A stretch of DNA of 64,000 bases from Escherichia coli (lineage in GTDB: Bacteria > Pseudomonadota > Gammaproteobacteria > Enterobacterales > Enterobacteriaceae). The stretch lies in the NCBI RefSeq assembly GCF_002854065.1, contig NZ_CP024147.1; one strand, given 5' to 3'. Both the position numbers and the translations under genes were made by a program. How positions within the stretch are numbered: the stretch's first letter is position 1; every line of letters begins with the position of its first letter. Shown here one piece after another: positions 6,286 through 58,175 of the stretch. Under the pieces are notes generated by a model that was not told where the DNA came from, did not search any database, and worked only from the letters and a program-made list of their open reading frames with translations.

Positions 6286-6372
6286 TGGTGCGAGGGGGGG
6301 GACTTGAACCCCCACGTCCGTAAGGACACTAACACCTGAAGCTAGCGCGTCTACCAATTCCGCCACCTTCGC
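6286..6372 (-). tRNA. leuV: tRNA-Leu (CAG)
   Basis: 87 nt; reverse complement matches GCGAAGGTGGCGGAATTGGTAGACGCG...CCCCCCCCTCGCACCA, CCA encoded. Confidence 0.95.
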
Positions 6373-6405
6373 ACAGTCATCTTACTTTTTTGATATCGCC
6401 TCGTT

Positions 6406-6492
6406 TGGTGCGAGGGGGGGGACTTGAACCCCCACGTCCGTAAGAACACTAACACCTGAAGCTAGCGCGTCTACCAATTCCGCCACCTTCGC
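6406..6492 (-). tRNA. leuP: tRNA-Leu (CAG), one-base variant in the variable region
   Basis: 87 nt; same as flanking copies except gtaagAacact vs gtaagGacact. Confidence 0.93.
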
Positions 6493-6520
6493 CCAGTGCG
6501 AGCAATATCAACGTGGTTTT

Positions 6521-6607
6521 TGGTGCGAGGGGGGGGACTTGAACCCCCACGTCCGTAAGGACACTAACACCTGAAGCTAGCGCGTCTACCAATTCCGCCA
6601 CCTTCGC
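6521..6607 (-). tRNA. leuQ: tRNA-Leu (CAG)
   Basis: 87 nt; third tandem copy, spacers about 33 and 28 bp. Confidence 0.95.
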
Positions 6608-6742: not shown

Positions 6743-6893
<151 letters not shown>

Positions 6894-14504: not shown

Positions 14505-14915
<411 letters not shown>

Positions 14916-14917
14916 TG

Positions 14918-15781
14918 TCACAAATACAGCGCCGGAAATATCAACCGGCCCACCCCGCGCACCTTTAATGCATCAGCCAACGGCTCAACGTCTTCCGGCG
15001 TGGCGCTCGCCCAGCTTTGCGCCTCGCCATACACGCCGTGGGCATGAAACGCGTTCAGGCGTACCGGAACATCGCCAAGTCCCTTGATAAACGCCGCCAG
15101 TTCTTCGATGTGTTGCAAATAATCCACCTGGCCAGGGATTACCAGCAAACGCAGTTCCGCCAGCTTGCCGCGCTCTGCCAGCAAACAGATGCTGCGCTTA
15201 ATCTGCTGATTATCGCGTCCGGTTAATTGTTGATGACATTCGCTACCCCATGCTTTGAGATCGAGCATTGCGCCGTCACACACCGGGAGTAATTTTTCCC
15301 AGCCGGTTTCGCTCAACATGCCGTTACTGTCCACCAGACAGGTGAGATGGCGCAGTTGCGGATCGTTTTTGATAGCAGTAAACAGCGCCACTACAAACGG
15401 CAGTTGGGTCGTGGCTTCGCCGCCGCTTACCGTTATCCCTTCAATAAACAGCACCGCTTTGCGGACATGGCTAAGCACTTCGTCCACGCTCATGGATTGC
15501 GCCATCGGCGTGGCATGTTGCGGACACCTCTTCAGGCAGGTATCACACTGCTCGCAGACCGCAGCGTTCCACACCACTTTGCCGTCAACAATCTGCAACG
15601 CCTGATGCGGACACTGTGGCACGCACTCTCCGCAATGATTACAGCGCCCCATCGTCCACGGATTGTGACAGTTTTTGCAGCGCAGATTGCAGCCCTGCAA
15701 AAACAGAGCCAGACGACTGCCTGGCCCGTCAACGCAGGAGAAGGGGATAATCTTACTGACTAAAGCGCATCTGCTGTTCAT
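14918..15781 (-). CDS. yjjW: Glycyl-radical enzyme activating protein (radical SAM) YjjW
   Basis: 287 aa; CxxxCxxC and extra ferredoxin-like Cys clusters; overlaps yjjI. Confidence 0.88.
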
Positions 15782-17303
15782 GGCTTATCACGCGCGGCTG
15801 GCGTTCCAGAATACGAGTGTTGCGTGCGGCTTCTTCGCCCAGCCAGGTGGTGTTGGTGCGTGAACCTTCGGCGCGATATTTTTCTAAATCCGACAAACGC
15901 ACCATATAACCGGTAACGCGAACCAGATCGTTACCGCTGACATTGGCGGTAAATTCACGCATTCCGGCTTTAAAGGCACCGAGGCAAAGCTGTACCAGCG
16001 CCTGCGGATTACGTTTGATGGTTTCGTCGAGCGTCAGAATGTCGCTGATGCCGGAATAATAATAAGCATGATGCGGGGCGACAGTTTGCAGATGGGTGAT
16101 CGGATCTGGCTCATCGCCATAGGGTAAACGCGCGCCCGGCGTGGTGCCGATATCGGAACTGATCCCCGACTGTGCGTGTAACATGGCGCGTTTTTGCCAT
16201 CCATATTTCACGGGGGTATTGGCGACAAACTCCGCCAGTTGCGCGCTGATGCGATAACCCACTTCATTTGCGGCGGCTTCTTTACCGTAACGTGCGGCAA
16301 TCCCTTCTTTCTCACACAGCAAGTTAACCGCTTCCGCCAGCCCATACATGCCAAACATTGGCACAAAACGTTCAGGGTTAATCAGCCCTTCTTTCACCAG
16401 GAAGCTATTCTCAAAGAAGTGTGATTGTTGATAGAGGAATTCACACCGCGCATCGATGATGGCGATCTGCTGCTGGCAATAGTGCGGTAGAGTGCGCGTA
16501 AAGAAGTCATCCAGCGATTCGCTGCGCTCGGCAATGGCTTTCAGGTTAAGGCGTACCAGCGTGCTGCCACCACCCGCCAGCGGCAGTGAGTTGTAACAGC
16601 TCACAATCCCGTAGCCCCCTTTTGTGAAAATTTTATCATGCACCGGACCGTTGGCGATGTGCGGTTTGCTACATTCACAGATGTTCTTCGCCACTTCCAG
16701 CAGCAGGTCATCAGGGGTGATTTCAGGATCGTAGATAAAGGTCAGGTTCGGTGAAACCTGCTTCAACTCTGCGTCTGCACGTAAGATCGCGCGGGTAATG
16801 GGCGAATCAGACGGGCCGATATTGGCGTGCATAAAGGCGTCTGGCAGGGTTCTGTCGAGGTAACGCCAGAAACGTTTTATTCGAACATCGATCTCGTCTT
16901 GTGTTAGAATTCTAACATACGGTTGCAACAACGCATCCAGTTGCCCCAGGTAGACCGGCATCGATGTGACCGACGGTACGTGGTGGTAAAGAATGGTCAG
17001 CAGAGAGAGTGCGTCATCAAGATCTTTCGCGCCTTCCAGCTCCAGCCATTCGGAACCGTTCGCCAGAAAACGGGCGTAATCGGGTAAGACATAGCGCGGT
17101 TTGTACGGCGCATGACCTTCAAACATATCGCAGATTACACCCTCATCCAGCGCGCGGCGGGCTTCGGCAGGAAGCTGCGGATAAGGCAGATTGTTTTCTG
17201 CTTCCAGAGCCAGAAAATGGCGCTTCTGCTCCGGGCTAAGCACTGGGCTGGTGACAATTTGCTGGCAACGTTGTTGCAGTGCATTTTCATGAGAAGTGGG
17301 CAT
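15753..17303 (-). CDS. yjjI: Glycine-radical-enzyme-like protein YjjI
   Basis: 516 aa; synteny with its activase yjjW. Confidence 0.88.
16902..16917 (+). promoter_or_regulatory. DeoR operator (deo O1 region), inside yjjI coding sequence
   Basis: Exact palindrome tgttagaattctaaca; 599 bp upstream of the second copy, matching the known O1-O2 spacing. Confidence 0.75.
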
Positions 17304-22026: not shown

Positions 22027-22137
22027 TTTATGTTCAGCCGTCATCCAGGAAGGGCATATCAGCAACTCTGGTGGACAACCATAAATTTCTGCCATTTTGC
22101 TTTTGATGTTTGAGCTAAACCGTTCCGTCTTTTCGAT

Positions 22138-22287
22138 CTATTTTAGAGAATTAATCGAGATACCTAACATTTTACTTACTTCAGCAAGCGATAATTTATG
22201 CCTGATACGCACGGCGGCTAGCCAGGAAATACGCTGGCTTAACATTAAATTGATAATCTCCCGCTCCTGGTTTTCCAGATCGATCAT
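22138..22287 (-). pseudogene. 49-codon ORF encoding a truncated XRE-like helix-turn-helix; possible remnant of the N-terminus of HTH-HipA-like YjjJ
   Basis: MIDLENQEREIINLMLSQRISWLAAVRIRHKLSLAEVSKMLGISINSLK*; SD aggaaggg upstream; starts 31 bp beyond lplA stop; no long HipA-like ORF between deoD and lplA. Confidence 0.4.
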
Positions 22288-22318
22288 ATTCCCTTCCTTT
22301 GGTATTTTAATCAGCGAG

Positions 22319-23335
22319 TTACCTTACCGCCCCCGCTATCCACGTCGACAACTCCCGTAGCTCTTTTTCCTGGTCCGGGAAGTCAACCAACAGCGCTTCG
22401 CACTCTTGTTGCAGCATATCCGCGCGGTACAGGCAGCCTTGCAGTCGCCCGGCGAGGGCTTCCAGCGGCGCGGGGTTGAGGCTGTCGGTAAACACCTGGG
22501 CGCGGGTGATATGGCCTTTTTCAACGTCGAAATGCAGTTCCACGCCGCCCCAGGTAAAGCGTTCATCCAGCAGATGCGAGAATGCCGGAGCCTGACCGAA
22601 GTTCCATTCCCAGCTACTCTGGCGGGCAAAGGTTTCGGCGAAGTTCGGCAAGTCTGGCGTTTTGTCCGGGGAGATGATTTCCGCTTCTACACGCTCGCCA
22701 TAATGAGCGAAAAAGGCCTCGGTTATGGCCTCGCAAACCTGCTCATGGGTGATCCCCGGCAACAGCTCGGTGAGGTTGGTCACGCGGGAACGTACCGACG
22801 TAATGCCTTTCGCCGCCAGTTTCTTTTTATCCGGATTGAGATAGTTTGCCAGGCGACTAAGGTCGGCATTGAGCAGCAAGGTGCCGTGGTGGAAGCCACG
22901 ATCTTTGGTTTCGCGATAGGCCGATCCTGAGACTTTGCGGTCGCCTTCGGCGGTTTTCACCACCAGATCGTTACGCCCGGACGCTTCGGCGCTGACGCCA
23001 AGCGCGTTCAGCGCATTGAGCACAATCGACGTGGAGATGGTTTTATCGTACTCCGGCTTGCCAGCCATAAAGGTAAAGCAGGTATTGCCGAGATCGTGGA
23101 ACACCGCGCCGCCACCGCTACTGCGCCGTGCCAGGCGGACGTTATCTTCTTCCATCCGCCGGGTATTACACTCTTTCCACGGGTTCTGCGCGCGACCAAT
23201 CACTACCGTGTCGGCATTGCGCCAGAGAAACAGAACGCGCTGCGTGGCGGGCATCTGGCGAAAAATACACTCCTCCACCGCCAGGTTAAACCACGGGTCG
23301 TAAGAGTCAGAGATGAGCAGGCGTAATGTGGACAT
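22319..23335 (-). CDS. lplA: Lipoate-protein ligase A
   Basis: 338 aa [22 protein letters not shown]. Confidence 0.95.
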
Positions 23336-27798: not shown

Positions 27799-27966
27799 AT
27801 GAGTTTTTTTGATGAGTTGAAAACCTCTCTGGAAGAGGCTGTCGAGATTAAACAAGGTTTGAAAGAACCAGCACGGATGACCCGCTACGAAATTGCGGAT
27901 GCTAAGGCTGTTGTAGACCGGAAAAGGTGTTCACGCCGCATCCGGCATTCGGTGCTCAATGCCTGA
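27799..27966 (+). other. 55-codon ORF with good SD; last ~15 codons are REP-derived; possible remnant of an HTH-antitoxin-like gene
   Basis: MSFFDELKTSLEEAVEIKQGLKEPARMTRYEIADAKAVVDRKRCSRRIRHSVLNA*; SD ggcgagg 8 nt upstream; not in the ORF track because it is under 60 aa. Confidence 0.3.
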
Positions 27967-28065
27967 TGCGACGCTTACCGCGTCTTATCAGGCCTGGAGA
28001 TTCACAACGTATTGAAATTTCTTGGTTTGTAGGCCGGATAAGGCGTTCACGCCGCATCCGGCATT
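27917..28065. repeat. REP/BIME elements between nadR and ettA
   Basis: gaaaaggtgttcacgccgcatccggc ... gcctgatgcgacgcttaccgcgtcttatcaggcc ... gccggataaggcgttcacgccgcatccggc. Confidence 0.8.
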
Positions 28066-41056: not shown

Positions 41057-41125
<69 letters not shown>

Positions 41126-41147
41126 CGCGTACAGGAAACACAGAAAA

Positions 41148-41180
41148 AAGCCCGCACCTGACAGTGCGGGCTTTTTTTTC
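41148..41180 (+). terminator. thr attenuator (intrinsic terminator)
   Basis: aagcccgcacctgacagtgcgggctt hairpin followed by a T-run. Confidence 0.9.
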
Positions 41181-46407: not shown

Positions 46408-46540
46408 TGCCGGGTAACAATCCGGCATTCAGCGCCTGATGCGACGCTGGCGCGTCTTATCAGGCCTACGTGAATTCTGCAATATATTGAATCTGCATGC
46501 TTTTGTAGGCCGGATAAGGCGTTCACGCCGCATCCGGCAT
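46408..46540. repeat. REP elements between yaaX and yaaA
   Basis: gccggcattcagcgcctgatgcgacgctggcgcgtcttatcaggcctac ... gccggataaggcgttcacgccgcatccggc. Confidence 0.8.
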
Positions 46541-53031: not shown

Positions 53032-54948
53032 ATGGGTAAAATAATTGGTATCGACCTGGGTACTACCAACTCTTGTGTAGCGATTATGGATGGCACCACT
53101 CCTCGCGTGCTGGAGAACGCCGAAGGCGATCGCACCACGCCTTCTATTATTGCCTATACCCAGGATGGTGAAACTCTGGTTGGTCAGCCGGCTAAACGTC
53201 AGGCAGTGACGAACCCGCAAAACACCCTGTTTGCGATTAAACGCCTGATTGGCCGCCGCTTCCAGGACGAAGAAGTACAGCGTGATGTTTCCATCATGCC
53301 GTTCAAAATTATTGCTGCTGATAACGGCGACGCATGGGTCGAAGTTAAAGGCCAGAAAATGGCACCGCCGCAGATTTCTGCTGAAGTGCTGAAAAAAATG
53401 AAGAAAACCGCTGAAGATTACCTGGGTGAACCGGTAACTGAAGCTGTTATCACCGTACCGGCATACTTTAACGATGCTCAGCGTCAGGCAACCAAAGACG
53501 CAGGCCGTATCGCTGGTCTCGAAGTAAAACGTATCATCAACGAACCGACCGCAGCTGCGCTGGCTTACGGTCTGGACAAAGGTACTGGCAACCGTACTAT
53601 CGCGGTTTATGACCTGGGTGGTGGTACTTTCGATATTTCTATTATTGAAATCGACGAAGTTGACGGCGAAAAAACCTTCGAAGTTCTGGCAACCAACGGT
53701 GATACCCACCTGGGTGGTGAAGACTTCGACAGCCGTCTGATCAACTATCTGGTTGAAGAATTCAAGAAAGATCAGGGCATTGACCTGCGCAACGATCCGC
53801 TGGCAATGCAGCGCCTGAAAGAAGCGGCAGAAAAAGCGAAAATCGAACTGTCTTCCGCTCAGCAGACCGACGTTAACCTGCCGTACATCACTGCAGACGC
53901 GACCGGTCCGAAACACATGAACATCAAAGTGACTCGTGCGAAACTGGAAAGCCTGGTTGAAGATCTGGTTAACCGTTCCATCGAGCCGCTGAAAGTTGCA
54001 CTGCAGGACGCTGGCCTGTCTGTATCTGATATCGACGACGTTATCCTCGTTGGTGGTCAGACTCGTATGCCAATGGTTCAGAAGAAAGTTGCTGAGTTCT
54101 TTGGTAAAGAGCCGCGTAAAGACGTTAACCCGGACGAAGCTGTAGCAATCGGTGCTGCTGTTCAGGGTGGTGTTCTGACTGGTGACGTAAAAGACGTACT
54201 GCTGCTGGACGTTACCCCGCTGTCTCTGGGTATCGAAACCATGGGCGGTGTGATGACGACGCTGATCGCGAAAAACACCACTATCCCGACCAAGCACAGC
54301 CAGGTGTTCTCTACCGCTGAAGACAACCAGTCTGCGGTAACCATCCATGTGCTGCAGGGTGAACGTAAACGTGCGGCTGATAACAAATCTCTGGGTCAGT
54401 TCAACCTGGATGGTATCAACCCGGCACCGCGCGGCATGCCGCAGATCGAAGTTACCTTCGATATCGATGCTGACGGTATCCTGCACGTTTCCGCGAAAGA
54501 TAAAAACAGCGGTAAAGAGCAGAAGATCACCATCAAGGCGTCTTCTGGTCTGAACGAAGATGAAATCCAGAAAATGGTACGCGACGCAGAAGCTAACGCC
54601 GAAGCTGACCGTAAGTTTGAAGAGCTGGTACAGACTCGCAACCAGGGCGACCATCTGCTGCACAGCACCCGTAAGCAGGTTGAAGAAGCAGGCGACAAAC
54701 TGCCGGCTGACGACAAAACTGCTATCGAGTCTGCACTGACTGCACTGGAAACTGCTCTGAAAGGTGAAGACAAAGCCGCTATCGAAGCGAAAATGCAGGA
54801 GCTGGCACAGGTTTCCCAGAAACTGATGGAAATCGCCCAGCAGCAACATGCCCAGCAGCAGACTGCCGGTGCTGATGCTTCTGCAAACAACGCGAAAGAT
54901 GACGATGTTGTCGACGCTGAATTTGAAGAAGTCAAAGACAAAAAATAA
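53032..54948 (+). CDS. dnaK: Hsp70 chaperone DnaK
   Basis: 638 aa [21 protein letters not shown]. Confidence 0.98.
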
Positions 54949-55036
54949 TCGCCCTATAAACGGGTAATTATACTGACACGGGCGAAGGGGAATTTCCTCT
55001 CCGCCCGTGCATTCATCTAGGGGCAATTTAAAAAAG

Positions 55037-56167
55037 ATGGCTAAGCAAGATTATTACGAGATTTTAGGCGTTTCCAAAACAGCGGAAGAGCGTGAAATCA
55101 AAAAGGCCTACAAACGCCTGGCCATGAAATACCACCCGGACCGTAACCAGGGTGACAAAGAGGCCGAGGCGAAATTTAAAGAGATCAAGGAAGCTTATAA
55201 AGTTCTGACCGACTCGCAAAAACGTGCGGCATACGATCAGTATGGTCATGCTGCGTTTGAGCAAGGTGGCATGGGCGGCGGCGGTTTTGGCGGCGGCGCA
55301 GACTTCAGCGATATTTTTGGTGACGTTTTCGGCGATATTTTTGGCGGCGGACGTGGTCGTCAACGTGCGGCGCGCGGTGCTGATTTACGCTATAACATGG
55401 AGCTCACCCTCGAAGAAGCTGTACGTGGCGTGACCAAAGAGATCCGCATTCCGACTCTGGAAGAGTGTGACGTTTGCCACGGTAGCGGTGCAAAACCAGG
55501 TACACAGCCGCAGACCTGTCCGACCTGTCATGGTTCTGGTCAGGTGCAGATGCGCCAGGGTTTCTTTGCCGTGCAGCAGACCTGTCCACACTGTCAGGGC
55601 CGCGGTACGCTGATCAAAGATCCGTGCAACAAATGTCATGGTCATGGTCGTGTTGAGCGCAGCAAAACGCTGTCCGTTAAAATCCCGGCAGGGGTGGACA
55701 CTGGAGACCGCATCCGTCTTGCGGGCGAAGGTGAAGCGGGTGAGCATGGCGCACCGGCAGGCGATCTGTACGTTCAGGTTCAGGTTAAACAGCACCCGAT
55801 TTTCGAGCGTGAAGGCAACAACCTGTATTGCGAAGTCCCGATCAACTTCGCTATGGCGGCGCTGGGTGGTGAAATCGAAGTACCGACCCTTGATGGTCGC
55901 GTTAAACTGAAAGTGCCTGGCGAAACCCAGACCGGTAAGCTGTTCCGTATGCGCGGTAAAGGCGTCAAGTCTGTCCGCGGTGGCGCACAGGGTGATTTGC
56001 TGTGCCGCGTTGTCGTCGAAACACCGGTAGGCCTGAACGAGAAGCAGAAACAGCTGCTGCAAGAGCTGCAAGAAAGCTTCGGTGGCCCAACCGGCGAGCA
56101 CAACAGCCCGCGCTCAAAGAGCTTCTTTGATGGTGTGAAGAAGTTTTTTGACGACCTGACCCGCTAA
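55037..56167 (+). CDS. dnaJ: Hsp40 co-chaperone DnaJ
   Basis: 376 aa from [13 protein letters not shown] domain HPD, G/F region, four CxxCxGxG zinc motifs. Confidence 0.97.
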
Positions 56168-56270
56168 CCTTCCCAAAAGCCTGCCCGTGGGCAGGCCTGG
56201 GTAAAAATAGGGTGCGTTGAAGATATGCGAGCACCTGTAAAGTGGCGGGGATCACTCCCCGCCGTTGCTC

Positions 56271-56423
56271 TTACTCGGATTCGTAAGCCGTGAAAACAGC
56301 AACCTCCGTCTGGCCAGTTCGGATGTGAACCTCACAGAGGTCTTTTCTCGTTACCAGCGCCGCCACTACGGCGGTGATACAGATGACGATCAGGGCGACA
56401 ATCATCGCCTTATGCTGCTTCAT
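56271..56423 (-). CDS. hokC: Type I toxin HokC (Gef)
   Basis: 50 aa MKQHKAMIVALIVICITAVVAALVTRKDLCEVHIRTGQTEVAVFTAYESE. Confidence 0.9.
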   Translation of the reverse strand: MKQHKAMIVALIVICITAVVAALVTRKDLCEVHIRTGQTEVAVFTAYESE

Positions 56424-56480
56424 TGCTCTCTTCTCCTTGACCTTACGGTCAGTAAGAGGCACTCTACATGTGTTCAGCAT
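56271..56480 (-). CDS. mokC: MokC, overlapping reading frame that couples hokC translation
   Basis: 69 aa MLNTCRVPLTDRKVKEKRA... in frame with hokC. Confidence 0.7.
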   Translation of the reverse strand: MLNTCRVPLTDRKVKEKRAMKQHKAMIVALIVICITAVVAALVTRKDLCEVHIRTGQTEVAVFTAYESE

Positions 56481-56526
56481 ATAGGGGGCCTCGGGTTGAT
56501 GGTAAAATATCACTCGGGGCTTTTCT
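56472..56526 (+). ncRNA. sokC: SokC antisense RNA (approximate position)
   Basis: Placed by the known architecture of hok/sok loci: antisense to the mokC start region; not verified by structure prediction. Confidence 0.35.
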
Positions 56527-57008
56527 CTATCTGCCGTTCAGCTAATGCCTGAGACAGACAGCCTCAAGCACCCGCCGCTATTATATCGCTCTCTTTAACC
56601 CATTCTGTTTTATCGATTCTAATCCGGAAGACGCCTCGCATTTTTATGGCGTAATTTTTTAATGATTTAATTATTTAACTTTAATTTATCTCTTCATCGC
56701 AATTATTGACGACAAGCTGGATTATTTTTGAAATATTGGCCTAACAAACATCGCCGACTGACAACAAATTAATTATTACTTTTCCTAATTAATCCCTCAG
56801 AAATCCTCACCTTAAGCTATGATTATCAGGGCTTAGGGTCACCCGTCAGCGCTTACAGCCGTCAAAAACGCATCTCACCGCTGATGGCGCAAATTCTTCA
56901 ATAGCTCGTAAAAAACGAATTATTCCTACACTATAATCTGATTTTAACGATGATTCGTGCGGGGTAAAATAGTAAAAACGATCTATTCACCTGAAAGAGA
57001 AATAAAAA

Positions 57009-58175
57009 GTGAAACATCTGCATCGATTCTTTAGCAGTGATGCCTCGGGAGGCATTATTCTTATCATTGCCGCTATCCTGGCGATGATGATGGCCAACAG
57101 CGGCGCAACCAGTGGATGGTATCACGACTTTCTGGAGACGCCGGTTCAGCTCCGGGTTGGTTCACTCGAAATCAACAAAAACATGCTGTTATGGATAAAT
57201 GACGCGCTGATGGCGGTATTTTTCCTGTTAGTCGGTCTGGAAGTTAAACGTGAACTGATGCAAGGATCGCTAGCCAGCTTACGCCAGGCCGCATTTCCAG
57301 TTATCGCCGCTATTGGTGGGATGATTGTGCCGGCATTACTCTATCTGGCCTTTAACTATGCCGATCCGATTACCCGCGAAGGGTGGGCGATCCCGGCGGC
57401 TACTGACATTGCCTTTGCACTTGGTGTGCTGGCGCTATTGGGAAGTCGTGTTCCGTTAGCGCTGAAGATCTTTTTGATGGCTCTGGCTATTATCGACGAT
57501 CTTGGGGCCATCATTATCATCGCATTGTTCTACACTAATGACTTATCGATGGCCTCTCTTGGGGTCGCGGCTGTAGCAATTGCGGTACTCGCGGTATTGA
57601 ATCTGTGTGGTGTACGCCGCACGGGCGTCTATATTCTGGTTGGCGTAGTGTTGTGGACTGCAGTGTTGAAATCGGGGGTTCACGCAACCCTGGCGGGGGT
57701 AATTGTCGGCTTCTTTATTCCTTTGAAAGAGAAGCATGGGCGTTCTCCAGCGAAGCGACTGGAGCATGTGTTGCACCCGTGGGTGGCGTATCTGATTTTA
57801 CCACTGTTTGCATTTGCTAATGCTGGCGTTTCACTGCAAGGCGTCACGCTGGATGGCTTGACCTCCATTCTGCCATTGGGGATCATCGCTGGCTTGCTGA
57901 TTGGCAAACCGCTGGGGATTAGTCTGTTCTGCTGGTTGGCGCTGCGTTTGAAACTGGCGCATCTGCCTGAGGGAACGACTTATCAGCAAATTATGGCGGT
58001 GGGGATCCTGTGCGGTATCGGTTTTACTATGTCTATCTTTATTGCCAGCCTGGCCTTTGGTAGCGTAGATCCAGAACTGATTAACTGGGCGAAACTCGGT
58101 ATCCTGGTCGGTTCTATCTCTTCGGCGGTAATTGGATACAGCTGGTTACGCGTTCGTTTGCGTCCATCAGTTTGA
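57009..58175 (+). CDS. nhaA: Na+/H+ antiporter NhaA
   Basis: 388 aa, GTG start; [31 protein letters not shown]. Confidence 0.95.

Follow-up and report, generated by a model that had tools for sequence, protein, structure and literature searches.

The window, a stretch of 64,000 nucleotides from the part of the Escherichia coli chromosome where the numbering of K-12 begins, carries between dnaJ and nhaA a hokC(gef)/mokC/sokC type I toxin-antitoxin locus that is very probably (probability of about 0.88) the ancestral, uninterrupted chromosomal form, built for regulation on the same plan as hok/sok of plasmid R1. It has the toxin ORF, an overlapping mok frame, the antisense gene and every cis element, each with consensus sequence. 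The IS-free state of hokC is the majority and ancestral one, and K-12, where an IS186 copy follows the toxin gene, is the exception. The IS-free locus is not new: it was already described in 1999, in ECOR24 (Pedersen and Gerdes, 1999).

The spacer between dnaJ and nhaA, initially given as 842 bp, measures 841 bp (56168–57008). The genes of the locus, their promoters and the neighbouring genes are located as follows.

dnaK: 53032–54948, from the ORF list.
dnaJ: 55037–56167, its stop codon ending at 56167.
hokC: 56271–56423, minus strand, ORF of a 50-aa Hok/Gef membrane toxin (MKQHKAMIVALIVICITAVVAALVTRKDLCEVHIRTGQTEVAVFTAYESE), from the ORF list and Pfam.
mokC: 56271–56480, minus strand, 69-codon frame overlapping hokC, with its ATG at 56480 and a stop codon in common with hokC.
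sokC: 56472–56530, plus strand, antisense RNA gene, carried over by offset from K-12 b4413.
Putative sokC promoter: 56437–56465, plus strand, with a -35 box TTGACC (56437–56442) and a weak -10 box CACTCT (56460–56465), placed by eye and by analogy with R1 sok.
Putative -10 box of the hokC promoter: 56580–56585, minus strand, TATAAT, placed by eye, with no good -35 box.
nhaA: 57009–58175, with nhaR next.

The HokC ORF matches Pfam family PF01848 (HOK_GEF) with an E-value of 1.8e-24 (85.5 bits for a cutoff of 22), and the protein is 100% identical to K-12 HokC in a tblastn comparison. The coordinates of mokC were carried over by offset from the K-12 annotation (b0018), and the frame is open in the ORF list of the window. 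Upstream of the toxin gene, the Rfam model RF01794 (sok/hok-leader) matches positions 56573–56421 on the minus strand over its full length (1–157), with 119.5 bits for a gathering threshold of 59. Thus, the ORFs, Pfam, Rfam and the K-12 annotation together bear out the identification of hokC, mokC and sokC, with both frames intact, that was made in the initial annotation; the span proposed there (56170–56560) takes in nearly the whole of the transcript modelled below, which runs from 56573 to 56176. Some names attached to this locus are confusing. The label given by PGAP (NCBI) to the 50-aa Hok ORF is "type I toxin-antitoxin system toxin MokC", and the Rfam family called "sok" is modelled on the strand of the hok mRNA, not on that of Sok.

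The sokC gene is complementary to nucleotides 44–102 of the hokC mRNA, a region that includes the SD sequence and the AUG of mokC. It shares 58 of its 59 nucleotides with K-12 sokC, the one SNP lying at 56486. In the predicted fold of SokC, a tail of 9 nt at the 5′ end leads into one long hairpin that resembles a terminator (-23.1 kcal/mol). Both the -10 box of sokC (CACTCT) and the -35 box of hokC fit the consensus poorly, and a consensus promoter scan called neither the hokC nor the sokC promoter; both promoters, as well as the terminator shared with dnaJ, were placed by homology and by eye.

The full-length hokC mRNA was modelled from its two ends. The 5′ end was taken from the first position of the Rfam model, from alignment to the +1 of R1-type hok and from the TATAAT box, which ends 6 nt upstream of +1 (7 nt from the last base of the box to +1). 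The 3′ end was set by a terminator hairpin and its U-run (56198–56177). The following elements are recognized in this RNA.

Full-length hokC mRNA: 56176–56573, minus strand, 398 nt, modelled.
tac: 56562–56573, minus strand, mRNA nt 1–12 (GGGUGCUUGAGG), placed on fbi in the full-length MFE fold and on ucb in the truncated fold.
fbi: 56210–56222, minus strand, nt 352–364 (CUUCAACGCACCC), the complement of tac with one bulged C.
3′ segment: 56223–56243, minus strand, nt 331–351, pairing in the predicted full-length fold with nt 92–113, which include the mokC AUG.
Terminator: 56177–56198, hairpin AGGCCUGCC-CACG-GGCAGGCUU followed by a U-run, helix 376–384/389–397, bidirectional, for dnaJ on the plus strand and hokC on the minus strand.

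A simple terminator scan did not call this shared dnaJ/hokC terminator because its T-run is short. In the window, the region 3′ of hokC is continuous with the terminator of dnaJ, as the initial annotation had said. That annotation had also suggested folding the mRNA in search of the 5′/3′ pairing known from hok/sok, and the full-length RNA is indeed predicted to form it: in both the MFE and the centroid folds, nt 1–12 (tac) are paired with nt 352–364 (fbi), and the probability that tac is unpaired is 0.01. The 398-nt RNA has an MFE of -168.5 kcal/mol, with z = -7.42, and all 100 dinucleotide shuffles fold less well.

When the RNA is trimmed in silico to nt 330, tac moves to another partner, ucb, and the target hairpin of SokC appears. 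The elements involved in this second fold are the following.

GC-rich post-stop hairpin: 56244–56263, minus strand, nt 311–330 (GGCGGGGA-GUGA-UCCCCGCC), predicted 3′ end of the processed mRNA and target of IS186.
ucb-like element: 56516–56522, minus strand, nt 52–58 (AAGCCCC), partner of tac in the fold of nt 1–330.
SokC target hairpin (mok SD/dcb stem): 56456–56492, minus strand, nt 82–118, with the mokC SD sequence (GAGG) and AUG inside.

The tac/ucb stem of the truncated fold corresponds to a stem of the Rfam consensus structure. The target hairpin (nt 82–118), seen only in the truncated fold, likewise agrees with a hairpin of that consensus. In R1 hok, a switch from tac/fbi to tac/ucb is documented, with experimental support for the pairing (summarised in PMC9841398). 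Moreover, the predicted processed end of the window's hokC mRNA, nt 330, agrees with the transcript of about 330 nt reported for ECOR24 hokC (PMC3562002).

By analogy with R1, these two folds suggest the following course of events. The primary transcript of about 398 nt would be locked, with tac held on fbi beside the shared terminator and the 3′ region also covering the mokC start codon, as the model of the full-length RNA predicts. Slow exonucleolytic trimming from the 3′ end, back to the GC-rich post-stop hairpin, would then yield the RNA of about 330 nt. This RNA may refold into the tac/ucb stem and the hairpin that exposes both the ribosome site of mokC and the target of SokC. Pairing of SokC with the refolded RNA would block translation of mokC and hokC; upon loss of SokC, HokC would be made and would damage the inner membrane.

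The plasmid R1 system, hok/mok/sok (parB), is one of the closest known systems. It has the same gene layout and, in the predicted RNA, the tac–fbi closure, the 5′ hairpin, the GC-rich post-stop hairpin and an fbi element just upstream of the terminator, and its leader fits the same Rfam model as the hokC leader. The R1-type hok sequence used here, which is 100% identical to many real plasmids, folds with the same architecture as hokC. Its post-stop hairpin occupies nt 340–361, and 361 nt is the length of the truncated R1 hok mRNA. The two RNAs are far from identical in sequence (224 of 469 aligned columns). In addition, R1 hok is plasmid-borne whereas hokC is chromosomal and has a terminator in common with dnaJ, and the -10 box of sokC (CACTCT) is weaker than that of R1 sok (TATCCT). 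Finally, post-segregational killing (PSK) was shown for R1 and not for hokC.

The long-range fold of hokC is a prediction that rests on thermodynamics, conservation and analogy. One may therefore ask whether the 5′/3′ pairing lacks a regulatory role and is an artefact, produced when a spacer rich in GC and in terminators is folded. MFE predictions are error-prone for an RNA of 400 nt, and an alignment of hokC orthologues brings no covariation support. This alignment comprises 11 E. coli strains that sample the range of identities, the window being one of them, and E. albertii, and is 98% identical over the transcript; 99.3% of the cells are paired and no pair is changed on both sides, a count that is uninformative either way because the orthologues are so similar. 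An artefact is nevertheless very unlikely in view of the z-score of -7.4 relative to dinucleotide shuffles, and of the experimental work on R1, which supports the same pairing (summarised in PMC9841398). Conservation also speaks against it. Both fbi and the post-stop hairpin are invariant in the 12 aligned strains, E. albertii included, as is tac with one exception, and the 3′ segment (nt 331–351) is invariant but for one column, in 2 of the 12 strains; the adjacent spacer between fbi and the terminator, in contrast, varies.

Complementarity between the 5′ end and the region preceding the terminator moreover recurs in distant hok homologues of different sequence. A scan of 298 Gb of contigs with the 14-mer GGCTTACGAATCCG, a pattern so short that most matches are due to chance, returned 120 loci, among which only four are hok loci (E. 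albertii twice, Citrobacter and Pseudescherichia). In the E. albertii, Citrobacter and Pseudescherichia homologues, the complement of the 5′ end sits just before their own terminators. Comparison of hokC with these homologues and with R1-type hok gives one compensatory pair, U-A for C-G. Apart from hok, the same 14-mer is found on at least 16 contigs of a single MAG (Pseudomonadota bacterium C21_maxbin.011, L006–L021), sometimes twice, 56 or 135 bp apart, and is there apparently a dispersed repeat with no relation to hok.

A regulatory tac–fbi closure thus remains the preferred reading, and the window has the sequences for it in consensus form. Relative to the 12-strain consensus, the tac, fbi and ucb elements of the window, its SokC target hairpin and its sokC region are all free of point mutations.

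Comparison with K-12 locates what is special to that strain. In MG1655, dnaJ ends at 15298, IS186A spans 15387–16731 and hokC lies at 16751–16903; this annotation confirms the IS186 copy between dnaJ and hokC that had been named when the window was first annotated. The insertion point of IS186A lies 12 bp past the stop codon of hokC. The K-12 sequences on either side of the element align collinearly with the window, the two flank alignments overlapping by 12 bp, and the junction comparison identifies the unoccupied site.

Empty IS186 target: 56249–56258, 10 bp (GGATCACTCC), present as one copy in the window and duplicated in K-12 and in strain GYB01.

The K-12 element has the ends CATAAG…CTTATG, with GGATCACTCC repeated on both sides. 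In the window, the target sits within GGGG-ATCACT-CCCC (56247–56260), a sequence of the form GGGG-N6-CCCC, in the middle of the post-stop hairpin, which reads perfectly as DNA (GGCGGGGA-TCAC-TCCCCGCC at 56244–56263). The target of IS186 is reported to be a GC-rich palindrome, GGGG-N6/7-CCCC, of which insertion duplicates about 10 bp (SaiSree et al., 2001).

The K-12 locus (hokC or gef, b4412; mokC, b0018; sokC, b4413) has the same position between dnaJ and nhaA and an identical HokC, and differs from that of the window by the 1.34-kb IS186A in the post-stop hairpin with its duplicated GGATCACTCC. Being inside this hairpin, IS186 cuts fbi and the terminator off the K-12 gene, so that the closed state cannot form. 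Consistent with this, the predicted fold of the K-12 transcript that continues into IS186 has tac paired with ucb at the outset and is not closed, and disruption of fbi by the K-12 element is stated in the literature (PMC3562002). Inside the hokC transcript, a single further base distinguishes the window from K-12, at 56486, between the SD sequence and the AUG of mokC; another difference lies at 56171. The base of the window at 56486 is common to all 12 of the other strains examined, which makes K-12 the variant.

The frequency of the two states was then measured in complete E. coli genomes. The uninterrupted 96-bp site occurs in 3,814 of 5,426 genomes, and the unbroken 491-bp stretch from the end of dnaJ to the hokC promoter in 3,791 of them (about 70%). 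Over the dnaJ–nhaA spacer, strain CUWW06 has 100% identity to the window. The K-12-type IS186 junction is found in 821–828 genomes (about 15% of the 5,426), and the junction expected for the opposite orientation, with the identical 10-bp GGATCACTCC duplication, in 940–943 (about 17%); the counts for the two orientations (821 + 943) exceed the 1,611 genomes lacking the intact site by about 150, an excess that longer junction queries did not account for. Since GYB01 carries the element in the orientation opposite to that of K-12 and has the identical 10 bp duplicated, IS186 has inserted independently at least twice. The post-stop hairpin of hokC is a polymorphic hot spot for IS186. To the 1999 description of the IS-free locus, this census adds a small population-level footnote.

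The presence of IS186 at exactly this site in about 30% of the genomes makes occupied ancestors conceivable, and hence an empty site that would be derived, a K-12-like ancestor having lost IS186 by precise excision. Such an origin is extremely improbable and was rejected. In the window, the 10-bp target stands as a clean single copy within a perfect hairpin, and the uninterrupted state is shared by strains that are 96–100% identical across the locus and by E. albertii, whose type strain has an uninterrupted orthologue with 95.5% identity. Furthermore, the finding of IS186 in both orientations with the same duplication is the mark of repeated insertion into an empty site. The uninterrupted arrangement of the window is best regarded as ancestral.

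Several strains show other lesions in this region. An IS150 copy lies in the hokC leader/sokC region, at the equivalent of about 56494, in PCN061 (L003, 6168–7537) and in GYB01 (L002, 4165–5074); both strains are hit twice, by IS150 in the leader and by IS186 downstream of hokC. In CMZE065 (L125), a CAG to TAG change at the equivalent of 56415–56417 converts codon 3 of hokC into a stop (Gln3→stop), and the RefSeq annotation of this strain has a 44-aa Hok/Gef protein starting from Met7. MLI104K2 (L004, 2289–3001) has a 711-bp insert at the same hairpin, in which only an 86-bp remnant of an IS186 end is recognized; the insert has long G/C homopolymer runs and an annotated 252-aa hypothetical protein, and must be taken either for an artefact of assembly or for a degenerate element.

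What the intact locus does in the cell is a separate matter. The sequence features needed for control in R1 style are all there and free of private mutations. The suggestion made in the initial annotation, that the locus may be functional, nevertheless calls for a caveat: according to the account of Pedersen and Gerdes (1999) relayed in a 2026 preprint, the IS-free hokC of ECOR24, which by its description is like the locus of the window in having a continuous fbi region and no IS186 (Mol Microbiol 32:1090), gave neither post-segregational killing nor activation by rifampicin. These negative results raise the possibility that the final killing step does not operate at native expression levels. 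The HokC peptide was toxic when overexpressed, according to the same preprint. An intact sequence is not equivalent to killing activity, and nothing in the sequence would decide whether the locus fires in vivo.

It is quite conceivable, if short of probable, that the locus is intact yet biologically inert, as a tightly silenced or decaying relic from which toxin would never be released in nature and in which the presence of IS186 has no phenotypic effect. About 30% of the genomes tolerate IS insertions here, some strains have IS150 in the leader, and in one the third codon of hokC is a stop. However, the whole 398-nt RNA, with the non-coding fbi in it, hardly varies within E. coli and keeps 95.5% identity in E. 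albertii, next to a spacer that does vary, which argues against free decay. The inert reading also has to accommodate a peptide that is toxic when expressed, as stated in the 2026 preprint, and the fact that everything is kept intact in 70% of the genomes. At the other extreme, IS-free hokC could be a working chromosomal killer or stress module, the recurrent IS186, IS150 and nonsense hits then reflecting selection to disarm it and not mere target preference; this is unlikely.

The practical bearing of these results is limited. K-12 is atypical at hokC and the window has the common, previously described IS-free form, which in itself matters little. Strains like that of the window are, on the other hand, the right background for testing the native function of a hok locus with an intact fold-back, a question that K-12 cannot answer; their value in this respect is modest. 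One further layer of control could be involved. The Tyr47 codon of hokC (56283–56285, minus strand), UAC followed by G, forms the UACG motif of A-to-I editing by TadA, and editing of the hokC mRNA to Cys at such a position is described in the 2026 preprint; editing at Tyr47 could thus add to the regulation of the locus.

A second IS186 copy of K-12 gives a parallel to the insertion at hokC. In hokE/sokE, a different paralogue located at another chromosomal site (ybdK–entD), IS186B lies in the equivalent post-stop hairpin, GCGGGGA-GUAA-UCCCCGC. The target there is GGGG-AGTAAT-CCCC, and the 10-bp duplication is GGAGTAATCC. When the K-12 hokE sequence was considered with the IS removed, a convincing fbi partner was looked for and not found.

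Elsewhere in the window, other differences from K-12 were observed. At 22033–22319, the window lacks K-12 hipH (yjjJ, 1.33 kb, between deoD and lplA) and has 287 bp unrelated to K-12 in its place. On the minus strand of this segment is an ORF of 49 codons (MIDLENQEREIINLMLSQRISWLAAVRIRHKLSLAEVSKMLGISINSLK) that resembles a helix-turn-helix fragment. Downstream of nhaR (59316–64000), 3.36 kb are absent from K-12, with a fimbrial-usher-like ORF of 816 aa and an ORF of 319 aa. After this segment comes an IS1 copy (62675–63448) that is 98.7% identical to K-12 IS1A, and beyond it a 182-aa ORF with no counterpart in the part of K-12 used for the comparison. IS1A of K-12 adjoins nhaR directly, which suggests an IS1-associated deletion in that strain. 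The window also has the following Rfam matches at gathering level.

naRNA4 (REP-type): 14599–14879, three tandem copies, and two elsewhere, 6748–6830 and 27916–27994.
tpke11: 54959–55036, between dnaK and dnaJ.
ES036: 46462–46504.
Three tRNA genes (leuVPQ in K-12): 6289–6607.
thr leader: 41061–41180.
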